20,000 nucleotides of DNA from an uncultured virus (IMG/VR IMGVR_UViG_3300044701_004307). Taxonomy: Duplodnaviria > Heunggongvirae > Uroviricota > Caudoviricetes. Shown one piece after another: positions 2,025 to 20,000 of the stretch. Made by a program: the position numbers and the translations under genes. How positions within the stretch are numbered: the stretch's first letter is position 1; each line of letters begins with the position of its first letter. Where the stretch lies: the IMG/VR virus record IMGVR_UViG_3300044701_004307; one strand, 5' to 3'. A model generated the notes under the pieces. That model had not been told where the DNA came from and did not search any database. It saw nothing but the letters and a program-made list of their open reading frames with translations.

Positions 2025-2789
2025 TCAAGCCTGCAGAGCAACGCTTGGCTCTAAAGCTAAAACCATCATCGCATTCGTAACAATGGCGGATAGATTGGCA
2101 GTGGCCGTACCAGTGGCGCCAGGCTCGGCTTTTACGCCCCGAAATACTCCGTATCCACCACCGTTACCACTTGTCGTTCCAGCTTCTCCGCAAGCGGCCA
2201 CTCCAGTGAGGCTTGGATTTGCAAAAAATTGAAAGAAGGTTGTGTAGGTCAGGTCATCTGGACGGCTTGCGATGTAGAGCACCATACTGTTATGTGCGAG
2301 TACATCGATGCTGGGCCAAGAAATATTTGGGCTTGCCGTGGTCTTGGTCGCGGTCGTAATCGCCCTGCCCGGATCTTCTGAGACCCTGGCATTACGAAAA
2401 ATATAAATTCCTGCCACTATGTGATCACTCGCCGCAGGTACTGTTACGTTTGCGGGAGAAGCAGTCGAAATTCTTTGCCAGAAAACTTGCATCTTAGACC
2501 CAGCCGTGGTTGCAACATCGACAACTGGTGAGCCAGGAAAAGAAGTCCATCCTGAAATAGCAATGTTCGCATTATTCCCTGAAGTCTCAAGAACAAGTAT
2601 GGCAAGGTCTCCAACATGCATGCCAAAGATCCACGGCAAAGACACGCTCCCAGTCGTGCTGGTCTGCGGAACTGTCGCTCCCACAAAAATTGGAGCGGCA
2701 TAACTGCCCGCCGCTGCACCACTCGATCTCAGGCGAAGTTGATTTACCTTAATATTGGCAGATCGATCTCCAGTTTTTAGGAAGCTCAT
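2025..2789 (-). CDS. Putative tail accessory / receptor-binding beta-sandwich protein
   Basis: 254 aa, Thr/Ala/Ser-rich; GDLAIL...GWT...VFWQR...IYIFRN pattern; 4-nt overlap with the upstream gene. Confidence 0.7.
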   Translation of the reverse strand: MSFLKTGDRSANIKVNQLRLRSSGAAAGSYAAPIFVGATVPQTSTTGSVSLPWIFGMHVGDLAILVLETSGNNANIAISGWTSFPGSPVVDVATTAGSKMQVFWQRISTASPANVTVPAASDHIVAGIYIFRNARVSEDPGRAITTATKTTASPNISWPSIDVLAHNSMVLYIASRPDDLTYTTFFQFFANPSLTGVAACGEAGTTSGNGGGYGVFRGVKAEPGATGTATANLSAIVTNAMMVLALEPSVALQA

Positions 2790-3136
2790 GTATCCTTGTC
2801 TCCAAGAATTTGAATTGTCACCATGCTACCTGTTGTCGTCTGCGCCTGAATAGTATCATTCAGATCGATCAAGGTGATCGGATAGGGCAGGTCCAGCATA
2901 AACGTCTCTTTGCTGACAATCAAAATCTCTGCAAACTGATGTACCGCACTGGCAGTCCCGACAGATCCGCCGCTGTCAGGCACATTGTAGAGCTTGATAA
3001 GTTCGGAAGACGTGTTGTTATTGAACAGCAAGAAACTTTTGATGTAAGTCTTCGTTGAAGACGGATTCGTGTAAACAGATCCAGTAGAGTTTGCGACATA
3101 CTGGATATCGACAAGTCTCGTGAATTGCCTTGCCAT
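2786..3136 (-). CDS. Small virion beta-sandwich protein (tail-fibre associated)
   Basis: 116 aa; VYTNP...YIKSFLLFNNNT...DTIQA pattern typical of small phage structural proteins found next to fibre genes. Confidence 0.7.
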   Translation of the reverse strand: MARQFTRLVDIQYVANSTGSVYTNPSSTKTYIKSFLLFNNNTSSELIKLYNVPDSGGSVGTASAVHQFAEILIVSKETFMLDLPYPITLIDLNDTIQAQTTTGSMVTIQILGDKDT

Positions 3137-3137
3137 G

Positions 3138-5825
3138 TTAAGTGTACAACTTAAGGAGGTCGTCTTCGATCATCTCGGTGACATCAAAGATCTCGCCTAG
3201 TGTTCCTGCATAGGTCGGCTTGATGCTAGCAACGGAGATATAGATAGGCTCAACGGCCACGCTAACGCCAGTAAAGACAGAAGGTGCGTAAGAGGACAGC
3301 GTAATGTTAGCACTCGGAACCTCGACGCTTGTCGTCGTAACGCCAATCTGCTGAGGCACAGCGGTCTCTAGCGCGATATCAACAGAGGGAATTTCAACCG
3401 AAATTCCATTATAAGCGATGTCGACGATTGGAGGCTTGGGCAGAAGGACGACATTGACACTTGGTGCTCCAATGATTGCACTGGTACCAGTGAGCGGCGA
3501 GACCAGCGTCCCTGAGAATGCAATATAAGCCCACAACGTGCCATCGGAGGACAACATCGAATTCTTTTTAACAGTAAAACCTGAAGAATCAACTGTTAGC
3601 GCATCTGTCGTGAGTGGACTCGAATAAGACGCCCACGGAATTGCCGAATTCCACCCCTTAATAGCATCAAAAGTGTAGGCAGGAGTAGCAGACCCCGAAG
3701 TGTATAGCACTTTTGCAATAATCATCACTGGCGCAAATCCAGTCTCAATCCGAGTGTCTACCGACGAGCTGCCGCCATGAGTCGCAGCATAAACTTTTCC
3801 GGGCTTTGACTTAAAGGCATGGTAGACGTATCTGAGGTCCGTGCCGGAATCTAGAACACCCGAAAGTCTGGCATATTTAGGAAGGGAGGGATTGTAGTAA
3901 TAGACTGGGCCATAAATGCTTCCTACGGAGATAGAGTCGTTAAATGCCATTCTTATTGAAGAATTATAGCCAGTTAACGCCCCAACCATGTAGCCCGAAG
4001 AATAGTTAGAAGTGCTTACCCTGGTAGACAGGATTACATCAGGCTCAGAGGTAAAGCCATGATAGATATAGGTACCTTGTCCATTAAGAATGCCTCCGGT
4101 ATTGTTAGAATTATAGTATCCATAGCTTATTGCATCTGGCTCAACCATCGCAAAAGTTGATTCGGCAATGTATCCATCGGTAATAGTTTGTTTCGTAAAT
4201 GAACGAGTGGATTGATTCCCTCCGAATACCCAAGCGCAGTAACCTACGCTGCTTTGATTCACGGATTGATTATTTCCGACTGTGAAACCATAAGATAGAA
4301 AGCTTGTTAACGTGTTCGAATAACTGGTCTCTCCATGCCCGCCGGAGAAGCTTCCGCCCTTAAGTGGGCCTCTCAAGCTGTCAAAAATTGAGATACCGTA
4401 AGTGTCATAATTATACGACTTTATCCAGACAAATGACGGTCTAAAGCCTAAATCAGAAATAGTTCTCGAAGAGCCATTACCCGTATATCCTACTGGCTTA
4501 AAATTATAGCCAGTAGTGTAAAAGGCATCTGTCTTAATCTTTAAGGTTACATTTGCAGCTCGATTTATGTACTGAAAAAGGGCAACGATTTTAGGCTTTA
4601 CCGCCAATCGCGCTCCCTTTATGACAGGAGGCGGGTCATAGGGCTGAGATGGGACAGGAAAGAAATTATCATAAAATAGAGCAGTTCCAATGATAAGCCT
4701 GAATTCGTCGATGTAACCAGAAAGATAATTATTAGTCGATGAATTGCCGATTTTTAGTGAGCTCGTCCCAAATCTTGGTTCAGTTCCTACGTTTGTAAAA
4801 AGCACAAGGGATCCATTGATATACGCCTTGAAAGTGGCGGTATCGCGCACGAAAGCAAGATGGAACCATGAGTCAGTAATATTGGAAAGAGTGCCAATAA
4901 TGCGTTCGACGTACGTGCCTGTAGAGGGGAACCGGTACCTATAATATATGGTCGAATTACTAATTGAAACGCCGTAATCCTCTGTCATCGGGCCTTCTTT
5001 CCCGGCGCTAAATAACCACCTATCTTGACTAGTGATCGAAGGCAGATAGAACCAAAAATCTAAAGTAAACTTAGAATTGCCAATCTCTAGCGATGGGTCT
5101 GTGCAGGAAATTGATGAAGTTGGTACCGTAAAATCACCGACACCGATGCCGATATTAGTTTTTACGTATGTTACTTTTGCGAATTGAGAGGTCCATGAAT
5201 TACCGACCTCATCAACAAAGTTGGTGCTTCCCTCGTACCCGTCCATGTGCAAAAGAACACTTGGCGAAGCACTGACTATTCCGTTTAAGGCATTGATTTT
5301 AGCCTTTGTCGACAACGTAACCGTTCTTCCGGATTCGGGAATTACTTCAGTAATTATTTTAAGAACAATTTTTAACGTGGCCTCTACTGGAATCCTTCTT
5401 GCTTGGGATAACCTTGTGTAAATACCCAGGGTGACCGGATCTGACTCCCGTGCCAAAACATAGGGATACGATTCGGTTACGACCTTTAGTCGAACGATGG
5501 CCTCAACCGGGAAGGCCTCTGAATATGGCTTAATTGTCCGCGTCGAGAAAAGCTCAACCTTGTAAACAGGACTGATGTATCGAGGCAGGATGTCTTGGAA
5601 CAGCCTGCACATGTCAGAGTCATCCCAGTCGGCAGGGACCTCGGCCGGATTAGCTGGAAGTGGATTTGGGTTGAAAATTTTATCTGGTGCAGGAGGCAGA
5701 GATGTCACTCCCTGTTGAATCGGAAACCAAGCAAAATTTTCTGTATTATTACAAAATGGAGTGGATGGAGTGCGGAAGCTTGCACCAACTCGAACTGTAA
5801 TTGTTGGGACAGTTTTAACAGTCAC
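3138..5825 (-). CDS. Tail fibre / receptor-binding protein with LamG (concanavalin A-like) domain
   Basis: 895 aa. LLHMDG...FTLDFWFY...WFHLAFVRD...YINGSL...GYIDEFRL is a LamG-like lectin domain; YTGNG...GFRPSFVWIK-type repeats follow, then C-terminal Val/Pro-rich repeats. GTG overlaps the hub stop codon. Confidence 0.85.
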   Translation of the reverse strand: MTVKTVPTITVRVGASFRTPSTPFCNNTENFAWFPIQQGVTSLPPAPDKIFNPNPLPANPAEVPADWDDSDMCRLFQDILPRYISPVYKVELFSTRTIKPYSEAFPVEAIVRLKVVTESYPYVLARESDPVTLGIYTRLSQARRIPVEATLKIVLKIITEVIPESGRTVTLSTKAKINALNGIVSASPSVLLHMDGYEGSTNFVDEVGNSWTSQFAKVTYVKTNIGIGVGDFTVPTSSISCTDPSLEIGNSKFTLDFWFYLPSITSQDRWLFSAGKEGPMTEDYGVSISNSTIYYRYRFPSTGTYVERIIGTLSNITDSWFHLAFVRDTATFKAYINGSLVLFTNVGTEPRFGTSSLKIGNSSTNNYLSGYIDEFRLIIGTALFYDNFFPVPSQPYDPPPVIKGARLAVKPKIVALFQYINRAANVTLKIKTDAFYTTGYNFKPVGYTGNGSSRTISDLGFRPSFVWIKSYNYDTYGISIFDSLRGPLKGGSFSGGHGETSYSNTLTSFLSYGFTVGNNQSVNQSSVGYCAWVFGGNQSTRSFTKQTITDGYIAESTFAMVEPDAISYGYYNSNNTGGILNGQGTYIYHGFTSEPDVILSTRVSTSNYSSGYMVGALTGYNSSIRMAFNDSISVGSIYGPVYYYNPSLPKYARLSGVLDSGTDLRYVYHAFKSKPGKVYAATHGGSSSVDTRIETGFAPVMIIAKVLYTSGSATPAYTFDAIKGWNSAIPWASYSSPLTTDALTVDSSGFTVKKNSMLSSDGTLWAYIAFSGTLVSPLTGTSAIIGAPSVNVVLLPKPPIVDIAYNGISVEIPSVDIALETAVPQQIGVTTTSVEVPSANITLSSYAPSVFTGVSVAVEPIYISVASIKPTYAGTLGEIFDVTEMIEDDLLKLYT

Positions 5826-14650: not shown

Positions 14651-15058
14651 ATGTCGATCGCAAACGCAGCCATCGATGAATGGCCGCTGCCTCAACGCAT
14701 CTCTGACTATTTATTCAGCATGGAATGCCTAAGAAAGCGCGATGCAAAGCGTATGTGGCGTAAGGCAATTAAAGATGCCTGGAATAATTGCTGCGCCTAC
14801 TGCGGCAATCCGCCCATTGATGACTCCAGCCTAACCATTGACCACGTAAGGCCTCGCAGCAGAGGTGGAGAAGACCTGGCGCGTAATTGCGCCCCTTGCT
14901 GTCTGGGCTGCAACCAATCCAAAGCATCTAATGATTGGCTGGAATGGTACAGGGATCAATCTTTTTATACCCCAGAACGTGAAGCTCGTATCAGAAACTG
15001 GATGGAATCTGGCATGATGCAATTACTGGCAGAATTGCGTGATTCGGAAGTTGATTAG
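14651..15058 (+). CDS. HNH endonuclease (zinc-binding, McrA/gp74-like)
   Basis: CAYCG...LTIDHVRPRSRGGEDLARNCAPCCLGCNQSK; its stop codon overlaps the stop of the convergent gene. Confidence 0.93.
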   Translation: MSIANAAIDEWPLPQRISDYLFSMECLRKRDAKRMWRKAIKDAWNNCCAYCGNPPIDDSSLTIDHVRPRSRGGEDLARNCAPCCLGCNQSKASNDWLEWYRDQSFYTPEREARIRNWMESGMMQLLAELRDSEVD

Positions 15059-17485: not shown

Positions 17486-17880
17486 GAGTGGACCAGGTAA
17501 ATGGCACCGTCTCCACCAGCGGGAGCCGTAAACAAAGTGCTGGATGCAAAATACTGGTAAAGTAGCCCGCGAATACGCTGCAACTCTCGCTCAGGGCTAT
17601 ACGAGGTGCCAGGGTTGGTCGCGGCCCATTCCAGCACGTCTACCTTGGTCAAAATACGCCCTTCGGAAGTCTCGTTCAACGTCGCCAAGCTCGACTGGGC
17701 TGTCTCCCAGGCGTCTAGTAGGTCAATGATCGGAGAGACTACACTCGGGACCTGCTCGGCCAAGTAGTTCATGTCCTGCTGGATCCGCGTCACCTGGTAG
17801 ATGCCAACCGGAAGACCCGCAGCAACTAACGTACGTACATCATCGCCCTCTGACCAGCCGAGCGCGGTATTCAGAGACAT
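17482..17880 (-). CDS. Probable head-tail adaptor protein
   Basis: 132-aa helical protein with LTKVDVLEW; first gene of the neck cluster. Confidence 0.6.
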   Translation of the reverse strand: MSLNTALGWSEGDDVRTLVAAGLPVGIYQVTRIQQDMNYLAEQVPSVVSPIIDLLDAWETAQSSLATLNETSEGRILTKVDVLEWAATNPGTSYSPERELQRIRGLLYQYFASSTLFTAPAGGDGAIYLVHS

Positions 17881-17904
17881 CGCAATTAGATGGGGAGGCG
17901 TCAG

Positions 17905-17914
17905 CTAGTTTTCC
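17905..17914 (-). promoter_or_regulatory. Putative late promoter motif GGAAAACTAG
   Basis: 24 nt upstream of ATG 17880, at the head of the cluster. Confidence 0.7.
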
Positions 17915-17960
17915 GTAACATAAACGCTCACCGTATCATGTGGGTAATCGTACTCACCAA

Positions 17961-18167
17961 ATGCTCCTTGATGTCCTGACGCTTACCATAATCTTGCGGG
18001 CAAAAGATCATATCGCCGCAAAACAGTTCCTCAGGGAATTGACCTATAGACCCCAATACGCAGAAGTTGAAGGGGTCTCTGATTACCCTAAGACGATTGT
18101 CCTTAAAGCAGTCGCAATCTGTGGAGGCTCCTCCCATCAGTGGCTGGAAGGGGTGTTTGATGGCTGA
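17961..18167 (+). CDS. Small hypothetical protein
   Basis: 68 aa from ATG 17961 (MLLDVLTLTIILRAKDH...) or 75 aa from GTG 17940; divergent from the neck cluster. Confidence 0.5.
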   Translation: MLLDVLTLTIILRAKDHIAAKQFLRELTYRPQYAEVEGVSDYPKTIVLKAVAICGGSSHQWLEGVFDG

Positions 18168-18226
18168 TTTGGGAAAATTTTGCTGGAATTTTGAGGGGGC
18201 TGACTGTCATCTGGCTTTTGCTGGAT

Positions 18227-18249
18227 GGGGTGGGGGTACCCCCTACCCC
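18227..18249. repeat. G/C-tract palindrome GGGGT-GGGGGTACCCCC-T-ACCCC
   Basis: Perfect 12-bp palindrome at 18232-18243 with matching outer arms. Confidence 0.85.
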
Positions 18250-18251
18250 CA

Positions 18252-18395
18252 GTAAAATAAGTTGTCCGACAATAGAAAAAATATTATTATTAATAATATT
18301 TATTTTTTTTATTTTTTTTTTAAAAAAAAACTAAAGGAGTCTTCAAAAATTTAATTTATAAAATATATTTATTTTTTTTTATTAATTAATTACAG
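18252..18395. other. Extreme AT-rich tract with palindromes
   Basis: Very few G/C; AAATATTATTA-T-TAATAATATTT (18279-18301) and T10A9 (18312-18330). Confidence 0.85.
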
Positions 18396-19235
18396 TTGAC
18401 CTCCGAGGGGGAACATGTAAGCTATTTACAAGCAAGGGATGGTGGGTATCCCCCCTGTACTGCATGCCATGGTATATCTTTTATTATATTAATAATTATT
18501 AAAGGGCATGAGGCAGTGCTAGGGCGTTCCCCTGCTGCGTGCTTCCCCTCTCCCTGTTACATAACAATAATAATAATTATAATTATTAATTCTTAAACGT
18601 TAACAGCTACATCACTCATACTACCTCGGCCAAGGGGGGGCAGGGAGGTGTTATTATTGCAAAACAATTTCCCTATGTGAGTGTGCCCTGTACTATCGAA
18701 GAAGTTCCATGGTTAATATGATCCATTGTGCCATGACCAACACCAGAATCCAATCGTTGACAGCCAGTACTGTACTATGCTTTACTCTGCCATGGGACAA
18801 AGAGATCTGCGAATAATCATTCGCTATCGCATAATAGATAGCACACGCTAAAGCCCACCTTTTAATTGAGCTTTACTCCTTGCCCATTCGCTTATGGGAT
18901 ATGCTTGTCCAGGGAAGTGTTGTGTGATTAGGTGTTCGTTCATACCCCTGGCACTGCCCCTCCCCGGCCTGATCATGAGACTCACCTTTGCAATATCATC
19001 TACAAGACCGCGCCTTGGCAGGCCAGTAGATACCCCCTCCTGCCATGAGGCCATGGGTTACTGTACCCCTGCAATGCAGCAGGCCTGCAGCCAGGGGCCT
19101 GGTCAGGATGTAGTTGGCGTGCGCCACTTGCTCCATGCCCCTTCTTGACCCCTGTTCCCCGTGTCATTCTCTCGGCAGTAATCCGCTATGTCCCCTTCCC
19201 TTGCTTTGCGAAAGGGGGTTATGATGGGCCATTGC

Positions 19236-19274
19236 GTGATCGTGGGCGGCCCGGCGGTCGATGTTCACGCTCAC
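19236..19274 (+). repeat. 39-bp direct repeat copy 1 (hairpin-forming)
   Basis: GTGATCGTGGGCGGCCCGGCGGTCGATGTTCACGCTCAC, identical to 19663-19701. Confidence 0.95.
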
Positions 19275-19275
19275 C

Positions 19276-19290
19276 ATAAGCAATACTGAT
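19276..19290. promoter_or_regulatory. 15-bp palindromic operator-like site ATAAG-CAATA-CTGAT
   Basis: One of four ATHAG-N5-CTDAT copies. Confidence 0.55.
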
Positions 19291-19321
19291 CAATCGGGAT
19301 GGACTGATTAGTAGTCCATAT

Positions 19322-19339
19322 GTTACAGAATGTTACGTT
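19322..19339 (+). promoter_or_regulatory. HLR1-like (RpaB) direct repeat GTTACAGA-AT-GTTACGTT
   Basis: Each half matches (G/T)TTACA(T/A)(T/A) at 7/8 with a 2-nt spacer; lies upstream of a -10 TAGAAT at 19365-19370. Confidence 0.4.
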
Positions 19340-19419
19340 TTCGTCAGCAGGGCCCAAGATCGACTAGAATACAGGCATGCGGGAGAGAAAACCCGCACCA
19401 AATTCAACGGAAAAATCCA

Positions 19420-19557
19420 ATGATCAGTATCACCAATGCTTTCAAGGCCACAATTGCGATTTACCAGCTCTGGGCTTATGAGCAGAGCCACCAGGTAGTT
19501 GATACATCCGTACCAGCCCTGGTCAATTACTGGCAACAATATTACGATTCCCTCTGA
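19420..19557 (+). CDS. 45-aa early-type hypothetical protein
   Basis: MISITNAFKATIAIYQLWAYEQSHQVVDTSVPALVNYWQQYYDSL; preceded by a -10 box, leader hairpin and GGA; followed by a terminator. ATG 19420 is preferred over 19330. Confidence 0.65.
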   Translation: MISITNAFKATIAIYQLWAYEQSHQVVDTSVPALVNYWQQYYDSL

Positions 19558-19572
19558 AAACTGTAACATTTG

Positions 19573-19598
19573 GGCTCCCGATCTCGGGGGCCTTTTTT
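19573..19598 (+). terminator. Rho-independent terminator
   Basis: GGCTCCCGA-TC-TCGGGGGCC followed by TTTTTT. Confidence 0.85.
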
Positions 19599-19661
19599 AT
19601 TAGCGATTCTAATCGATAAGCAATCCTGATTGCCGAACCTCGATAGATTAGCATTGCTTAT
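19599..19661. promoter_or_regulatory. Cluster of three 15-bp palindromic operator-like sites
   Basis: ATTAG-CGATT-CTAAT (19599-19613), ATAAG-CAATC-CTGAT (19616-19630), ATTAG-CATTG-CTTAT (19647-19661). Confidence 0.6.
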
Positions 19662-19662
19662 G

Positions 19663-19701
19663 GTGATCGTGGGCGGCCCGGCGGTCGATGTTCACGCTCA
19701 C
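19663..19701 (+). repeat. 39-bp direct repeat copy 2 (hairpin-forming)
   Basis: Identical to 19236-19274; 427-bp period. Confidence 0.95.
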
Positions 19702-19709
19702 GCGCTTGC

Positions 19710-19737
19710 TTGACACCTGCTGTTAATCGACTATGAT
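19710..19737 (+). promoter_or_regulatory. Sigma70-type early promoter
   Basis: TTGACA (19710-19715), 16 nt, TATGAT (19732-19737), upstream of AAAGGA and ATG 19762. Confidence 0.75.
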
Positions 19738-19761
19738 TCAATTAGTCAAAAGGATCCATCC

Positions 19762-20000
19762 ATGATTGCAGTCCTGCATCCCTTCCATTTTTCTGACGCC
19801 ACCAAGCGCGAACTGGTGCGCAAGGCTGGCGACGCCCAAGACGCAATGTATGATGCGATCCAAGCGTTTGCTGATGCGCTGTATGAAGAGGCTGTCAAGG
19901 TCAAGGGGCATTCCCCGGACCAAGCCGATCTTGTCGTACGCGGTCTCCTGGTGGGTATCGGCGAGGAGATGGCCCATGACTGGGTTTATGGGCCGGATGC
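19762..20000 (+). CDS. Early-type hypothetical protein, 5' part (runs off window)
   Basis: Manual translation MIAVLHPFHFSDATKRELVRKAGDAQDAMYDAIQAFADALYEEAVKVKGHSPDQADLVVRGLLVGIGEEMAHDWVYGPD..., open to the edge; AAAGGA RBS and a promoter lie upstream. Confidence 0.8.
   Translation, partial: MIAVLHPFHFSDATKRELVRKAGDAQDAMYDAIQAFADALYEEAVKVKGHSPDQADLVVRGLLVGIGEEMAHDWVYGPD

Follow-up and report, generated by a model that had tools for sequence, protein, structure and literature searches.

An array of small-gene cassettes delimited by bulged hairpin repeats in siphophages of the Synechococcus type, with signs that single cassettes are amplified

Why should a gene for a protein of only 45 amino acids stand between two identical 39-bp hairpin repeats, with a pair of inverted repeats just inside them, in the genome of a tailed phage? 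The locus lies near the end of the window, the whole 20-kb stretch of DNA analyzed here, and its initial annotation had offered two answers: a unit integrated between attL- and attR-like sites, or a repeat-driven shuffling system for small genes. The remaining part of the window codes for tail, tape-measure, neck and HNH proteins. The tail tube protein is 69% identical to those of the Synechococcus phages S-CBS2 and S-CRES3, 56–59% to those of S-CRES1/S-CRES2 and 43% to that of P-SS2, and a Synechococcus/Cyanobium-type siphophage is the best explanation for the phage carrying the element. The DNA was found in four sequencing runs, all of them freshwater metagenomes, from which it may originate. 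The HNH endonuclease (14651–15058), encoded on the opposite strand within the tail operon, is present in all the relatives compared. The features of the locus are as follows.

18188–18235, + strand: motif A ('T-run-GAGGGGG ... G-rich tract'), a conserved landmark separating the structural operon from the cassette region
19236–19274, + strand: hairpin repeat copy 1, made of an 11-bp arm, a GGYC-loop-GGYC core, a 3-nt bulge and an 11-bp arm
19275–19296, + strand: left 22-bp inverted repeat, holding a palindromic box of the ATCAG-N5-CTGAT type (19276–19290)
19320–19339, + strand: 9-mer and candidate HLR1-like (RpaB) direct repeat (19322–19339), 14/16 consensus matches
19341–19370, + strand: putative weak sigma70-type promoter, 9/12 matches, with a −10 region similar in cassette L032_1 and in the G003 frame
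19374–19397, + strand: conserved motif in the 5' leader that includes a small hairpin (stem 19378–19383/19392–19397)
19420–19557, + strand: 45-aa ORF, the cargo of cassette 1, with no PHROG, Pfam or Atlas family
19572–19600, + strand: intrinsic-terminator-like hairpin (19572–19593) and T run, conserved in L032_1
19599–19630, no strand assigned: two more boxes matching the ATCAG-N5-CTGAT-type motif (19599–19613 and 19616–19630)
19641–19662, − strand: right 22-bp inverted repeat, holding a box (19647–19661)
19663–19701, + strand: second copy of the hairpin repeat, with the same sequence as copy 1; contig L001 stops at its last base
19702–20000, + strand: cassette 2, open at the window end, with a putative promoter (19710–19737, 11/12) and an ORF from 19762 of at least 79 aa

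The architecture proposed initially, in which a direct repeat, an inverted repeat, a promoter, the 45-aa gene, a terminator, an inverted repeat and a direct repeat follow one another, is real. Spaced by 427 bp, the two direct repeats are the only copies of their family in the window, and the 22-bp inverted repeats (19/22 matches) reach into them, so that the pair spans 31 nt at 87% and heads the list of inverted pairs in the window. The inner 9-bp pair noticed earlier (19320–19328 and its complement, 19561–19569) is exact and occurs nowhere else in the window, but the inverted pairing is not kept in the homologous L032 cassette. Since a scan of the window gave counts near those of shuffles (8 promoter-like sites vs 4.0, and 3 terminator-like sites vs 2.2), the promoter and terminator of cassette 1 are to be read as consensus matches only; both recur in L032_1. 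The 45-aa frame is the 3' portion of a 75-aa ATG frame starting at 19330, and two observations back its start: cassette L015_6 has the same leader, and one homolog, at 84% identity, is likewise 45 aa long (homologs of the protein: P0001, 84%; L203, 44%). Cassette 2, absent from the initial annotation, starts straight after repeat 2; its ORF has homologs at 46–47% in L022 and L236, located just after motif A and outside the repeats. From a 362-bp contig, a third repeat would be expected just past the window end. A search of Rfam over 17800–20000 gave eight weak matches, every one far under the gathering threshold.

Pattern scans of IMG/VR and of metagenomes, for which a distant match in S-CRES1 was the starting clue, showed that the 39-bp repeat is one member of a family of bulged hairpins, with 93 copies (80 distinct, 37–42 bp long) in 21 records, which splits rows of small genes in S-CBS2/S-CRES-like Synechococcus siphophages. 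These counts exclude L223 and L033 (near duplicates), L205 (a doubtful single repeat) and L031 (none), as well as a second arm type and core-less variants. The two copies in the window are not a one-off att pair. The arrays hold 2–12 repeats in related phages, including the cultured S-CRES1, and the repeat is carried by the cultured S-CRES2 as well. Among the 80 metagenome loci listed of at least 120, only L104 and L139 were arrays, and the exact 39-bp repeat of the window was found in one IMG/VR contig besides G001, the nearest virus record. No hairpin repeat was seen in the stretches examined of S-CBS2, S-CRES3 and P-SS2. The GTDB genomes gave no array and 19 single matches, none of them cyanobacterial, which were taken as chance. 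In the literature searched, outside which most subscription journals fall, we found no description of this repeat.

Each repeat is built of two 11-bp arms and an inner GGYC-loop-GGYC stem, with a bulge, mostly of 3–5 nt, on the 3' side; the core, of 15–18 bp, is self-folding. The sequence of the arms is conserved and shows no real compensatory changes, which is in part a product of how the search was constructed. The inner stems of the 80 distinct repeats include 77 G.T pairs vs 2 C.A pairs, and among the 81 parsed cores 52 are GGCC/GGTC, 27 are GGTC/GGCC, two are fully paired and none has two G.T pairs (exactly one in 79/81), counts that are biased by the search pattern and confounded by common descent. 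Predicted folding favors one strand, in 64 of the 80 as RNA and in 65 as DNA. The repeat centers are more similar within arrays (0.86) than between them (0.67), as expected from frequent exchange. Judged by sequence, few of the hairpins would act as intrinsic terminators: a T run follows the hairpin in 2/93 cases on one strand and 6/93 on the other. Both promoter matches of the window (19341 and 19710) sit in cassettes, outside the repeats, and a promoter-like pattern was found in 19 of the 72 intervals between repeats. In most cassettes, the repeat stands about 20–70 nt ahead of the start codon.

The second arm type, which still pairs, forms arrays in G002 (48793–50030), G004 (about 2600–4350) and L236 (4001–5170). 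In G002 and G004, its repeats share the core of the first-type repeats of the same phage, and where the two types adjoin no hybrid between them was seen. Core-less palindromes with the same arms were also observed (L016 at 9614, 9976 and 11663; L015 at 4212; L022 at 8824); they flank larger genes beyond the main arrays, and one such unit has a homolog of cassette family N.

All 89 repeats in the 17 arrays are co-oriented, no core being inverted within an array. Motif A lies upstream of the repeats and on their strand in 10 of the 25 records scanned, two of which look like one phage, and in none on the opposite strand; in all 10, the repeats point away from it, even where the genes run opposite. 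The motif is also present in G006 under a looser pattern and is conserved across the phage group, including S-CRES3. Possibly it is a packaging or terminus site. Between it and the array, the stretch 18270–18600 is extremely AT-rich, with long A and T runs; such tracts, which are also found in S-CRES1 and G006, may correspond to a replication origin or terminus region. At the corresponding place in S-CRES3, small genes are preceded by another repeat, which is promoter-like (L229, 4353–5984) and perhaps a true alternative of the promoter stem-loop (PeSL) type described for T4-like phages.

An ORF of at least 30 aa was present in 68 of the 72 intervals (four had none), and by automatic calling its stop falls in a repeat arm in 36 of the 68. 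About 42 ORFs run with the repeats and about 26 against them, an approximate count because the caller misassigned several cassettes, that of the window included. Cargo matched PHROG families, all of unknown function, in 13/56 cases and Pfam in 2/28. Homologous cassettes stand at different ranks among arrays: families A and B are neighbors in L200 and L015 in reversed order, and families A and E have exchanged places between L015 and L022. The cassettes common to L034 and L032 are 90–93% identical, homology breaks at the repeats, and the orders read A, N, new, I in one and A, I, x, M, N in the other. One family occurs in both orientations (L015_7 and L020_3, 53% identical). In S-CRES1, two genes stand between a pair of diverged repeats; the product of one of them, annotated as SAM hydrolase (gp62; L002, 3042–3344), matches Pfam DUF3574. 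Array L139 was considered as a tandem amplification and rejected, its equally spaced units being different cassettes.

Cassettes have thus been reordered and lost at the hairpins in related viruses, and relatives of the 39-mer do separate variable small genes in arrays, which bears out the initial suggestion of repeat-driven shuffling similar in concept to PeSLs. The search for alleles with an empty site had a mixed result: cassette loss at repeats was seen in relatives, but no empty-site allele of the window's own phage was found. That a hairpin-delimited cassette system exists is, in our judgment, very likely.

The 22-bp inverted repeats, taken initially for the cassette boundary, are not a general part of this system. 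The cassette ends are complementary at 19/22 positions in the window and at 18/22 in L032_1, and at no more than 10 in the other 70 intervals; as a general cassette feature, terminal complementarity was rejected, with a mean of 5.86 of 22 vs 5.88 in cross pairs and occurrence in 2 of the 72 intervals. The same scarcity was found when a MITE-like element was considered (terminal inverted repeats on 2/72 units, and few exact repeats). L032_1 shares its ends, promoter region, 5' leader and terminator with cassette 1 and carries an unrelated 73-aa ORF. The left end, homologous in L032_1, is similar in L203 and G003, and G003 has a similar promoter-terminator frame around other genes. The leader 18-mer is exact in only two IMG/VR contigs, that of the window's phage and that of L032, with a variant in G003. 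L203 holds its 44% homolog of the 45-aa protein between arm-only ends; these are nested in another, perfect 12-bp inverted repeat (L203, 535–25), suggesting a cassette within a cassette.

A palindromic box of the ATCAG-N5-CTGAT type, which presumably resembles LysR-type sites, lies in each inverted arm. Five boxes fall in 19236–19701 vs 0.2 in shuffles, and none of 1000 shuffles reached five; the motif was derived from these same loci, so the test is not blind, and one of the five matches is in the ORF start. Box clusters also occur in the same region of G003, G005, L032 and L236. The left 9-mer would be half of the HLR1-like direct repeat, scored with the RpaB consensus given in PMC6525291. 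Judged by their sequence, the inverted repeats resemble operator-type boxes within a promoter-terminator frame that can be reused.

In G001, the array reads repeat, cassette 1, repeat, cassette 1, repeat, cassette 2, with both 388-bp copies of cassette 1 identical, a tandem that may be an unrolled assembly loop. Contig L001, 99.99% identical to the window, terminates at repeat 2, which is what an assembly-graph branch would cause; L001, like G001, may come from some of the same samples as the window. Depth was taken from Logan contigs of the four runs (X1–X4, representing two samples), where cassette 1 forms its own contig. Its depth was 692, 581, 324 and 430, that of the flank 221, 159, 166 and 220, and that of cassette 2 252, 225, 692 and 1196, values that sum other organisms and, as the depth tool warns, do not equal copy numbers. 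Relative to the flank, cassette 1 stood at 3.1, 3.6, 1.95 and 1.96 (1.9–3.6 overall) and cassette 2 at 1.1, 1.4, 4.2 and 5.4, a 4–5-fold excess in X3 and X4. These unlike profiles indicate that the two cassettes vary independently, and the unlike ratios in runs of the same sample point to library effects. The repeat appeared as a separate 39-bp node in two runs, and a 423-bp contig ends at 19667 in X3 and X4. No joint between contigs is listed in the four runs; with no strand-change joint among them, in-place inversion of cassette 1 was rejected. Cassette 1 appears to be amplified in the natural population, and the depth excess would fit tandem arrays, circles enriched by library preparation, or an identical cassette in a co-occurring phage.

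By what means would the cassettes move? The tyrosine (PF00589), serine (PF00239) and Y1 (PF01797) families were each found in none of five array-bearing phage records, two of them complete. The annotation of S-CRES1 has no recombinase of these three kinds, and a Pfam scan of 41 chosen G003 proteins (of 145 called ORFs) and three window proteins detected none. The idea of attL and attR around an integrated unit with its own recombinase is therefore not supported, and neither a prophage-type att site or shufflon, for which no linked serine or tyrosine enzyme was seen in the records scanned, nor an IS200/IS605 or REP (HUH) element, with Y1 in 0/5 phage records, fared better. The search for a recombinase instead led to an annealing protein. 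G003 encodes Sak (matched at E 1.7e-4, narrowly under the cut-off of Pfam) as well as SSB, RusA and a DUF3799 exonuclease; homologs of all four are present in G002, G004 and S-CRES1, and the S-CRES1 record annotates a 'Rad52 recombinase'. Sak-type proteins anneal short, imperfect homologies. Together with the failure to find a recombinase, this favors annealing between co-oriented repeats during replication, and we regard an array shuffled by short-homology annealing (Sak and exonuclease), with amplification of single cassettes, as the probable explanation, held with moderate confidence.

Under short-homology annealing, the window element would be the first unit of a cassette array of presumably early genes, each cassette bounded by a co-oriented 37–42-bp bulged hairpin whose arms may often provide a stop codon in either direction. 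Recombination between two repeats would loop a cassette out or duplicate it, and the looped-out cassette could insert again, at a different repeat or in a relative infecting the same cell. This would likely be the work of the single-strand annealing protein Sak of the phage, together with the phage exonuclease, on DNA that replication leaves single-stranded. With its own putative promoter, terminator and operator-like boxes, cassette 1 would be a complete expression unit in every copy, and in the sampled population it would have multiplied in tandem, as circles or in both forms, in the manner of a gene-dosage accordion. Plain homology, however, leaves unexplained why every repeat stays a palindrome and why, in a phage with both arm types, these have a common core and yet no hybrid is seen, and it does not account for the single G.T pair per core or for the polarity fixed by motif A.

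A structure-specific enzyme would better explain the matched arms, the single G.T pair and the fixed polarity. In such a site-specific system, a host or unrecognized phage enzyme would bind the folded hairpin on one strand, excise cassettes as abundant circles and reinsert them, in an integron-like accordion without the integron integrase, and the ATCAG-type boxes, all four of which are on the cassette side, would be accessory arm sites making the circle junction attP-like. The sequence conservation of arms and core, the G.T pairs lying on one strand, and a second arm type altered on both sides and still paired are consistent with this, as are a predicted fold of −25.0 kcal/mol at the tandem junction vs −11.2 and −10.0 at the two outer junctions, and a depth excess far above the one PeSL circle in about 100,000 virions reported in PMC2839356. 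We nevertheless consider it improbable: none of the three enzyme families was found in the five records, attC R boxes were found in 0/93 repeats, GTDB offered neither an array nor a cyanobacterial match, the G.T excess carries the bias and shared descent noted above, and the terminal inverted repeats are confined to two intervals. If it were true, the phage would tune the dose of single host-takeover or anti-defense genes in a natural population.

The hairpins could also be mainly RNA signals, cut by host RNase III or E, or symmetric operators, with shuffling as a by-product of their many copies. In phage T7, early genes are separated by RNase processing sites, and the position of the repeats shortly before start codons, the better RNA fold on one strand, the retention of matched arms and the SAM hydrolase annotation of the S-CRES1 cassette gene would suit such a role. 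In L009, L024, L139 and S-CRES1, however, where genes are mostly reversed, the strand of the repeat tracks motif A and not transcription, and the 'RNase III' label in S-CRES1 is unsupported for the G003 homolog. A phage-encoded RNase III (S-CRES1 gp1; L035, 70–504) was rejected on this ground, the G003 homolog having no Pfam, PDB or Atlas support. As the main function of the hairpins, this seems to us quite unlikely, and an RNA-signal or operator role can coexist with shuffling by homology. Least probable of all, and in our view hardly to be expected, is that the extra depth and the tandem copy have a technical origin, or stem from another phage in the sample with an identical cassette, which would be single-copy here: the caveats on contig depth, the differing ratios of runs labeled as one sample, the lack of a listed joint and the movement of cassettes between phages speak for it, but no variant letters are listed, the high-depth contig spans exactly repeat to repeat, the flow through the X1 repeat node balances with flank, cassette 1 and cassette 2 only (913 in, 944 out), and G001 contains the junction between two cassette-1 copies; the cassette family would in any case be left untouched.

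Several known systems resemble parts of this one. According to the published accounts (PMC2839356, PMC4122927), PeSLs delimit cassettes in the T4-type phages RB49/phi1, T4/PST and KVP40/nt-1, and a PeSL comprises a terminator stem-loop, a sigma70 promoter, a Shine-Dalgarno sequence and a start, with about 100 bp conserved. At PeSLs, orphan genes are shuffled, and mini-circles and dimers arise in about one of 100,000 virions, with no recombinase identified (PMC2839356). As with PeSLs, repeated intergenic elements here surround small orphan and presumably early genes in variable regions, with insertion, deletion and displacement at the repeats and no dedicated recombinase identified; to the mini-circles and dimers may correspond the tandem junction of G001 and the excess depth, which are compatible with a circle or a tandem. 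The common unit here, in contrast, is a bulged palindrome of 37–42 bp that lacks a promoter and is followed by a T run in very few cases. Promoters and terminators are found only in some of the cassettes, whose genes may face either way, and the phage that carries them is a siphovirus; what look like extra copies are reckoned per genome instead of per 100,000 virions as in the PeSL account. Because it has neither promoter nor T run, the repeat is not a PeSL: it works like one, with a different anatomy.

Integron arrays have one small ORF per unit, with the stop codon often inside attC, co-oriented imperfect hairpins, and reordering; attC sites have unpaired bases, one-strand G.T pairs and R boxes, and are recombined with attI by the tyrosine recombinase IntI. 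The phage arrays share with them the co-orientation of sites, the single ORF per cassette, the stop codon in the arm, the imperfect hairpins in which some bases stay unpaired and G.T pairs lie on one strand, and the reordering. They differ in that no integrase was found (PF00589 in the five records, or annotated in S-CRES1), R boxes of the attC consensus were not seen on either strand, the repeats are shorter than attC, many cassettes are reversed, and repeat centers are homogenized within each phage. The hairpin array is not an integron. Shufflons and pdif modules are likewise units bounded by arm-core-arm sites, with occasional inversion as here; unlike them, the present arrays have no recombinase that we found, cores that are never inverted within an array, and a core of 15–18 bp that folds on itself. 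In the T4 dmd-tifA case, segmental amplification arose at chance 6–10-bp microhomologies in laboratory evolution (PMC9391042). There too, by that account, a small locus is tandemly amplified via flanking short homologies, with raised read depth and a cross-repeat junction, whereas here the homology is a built-in, conserved 39-bp repeat and the population a natural one. The passages on S-PM2 in PMC4503421 contain nothing of direct bearing.

The locus is a tangible example of how small orphan early genes, on which host range depends, are acquired, rearranged and dosed by phages. It goes beyond what is described for PeSLs in three respects: the joint is of another kind, a palindrome of strict polarity; the promoter-terminator frame is reusable and its cargo can be exchanged; and there are signs of separate amplification of individual cassettes in nature. 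This last point, the amplification of single cassettes in a natural population, is what the window newly contributes, and the evidence for it is indirect. As the repeat is present in the cultured S-CRES1 and S-CRES2, circle formation and enzyme dependence are experimentally approachable, and the amplified cargo would be a good source of candidates for genes under current selection by host defenses.
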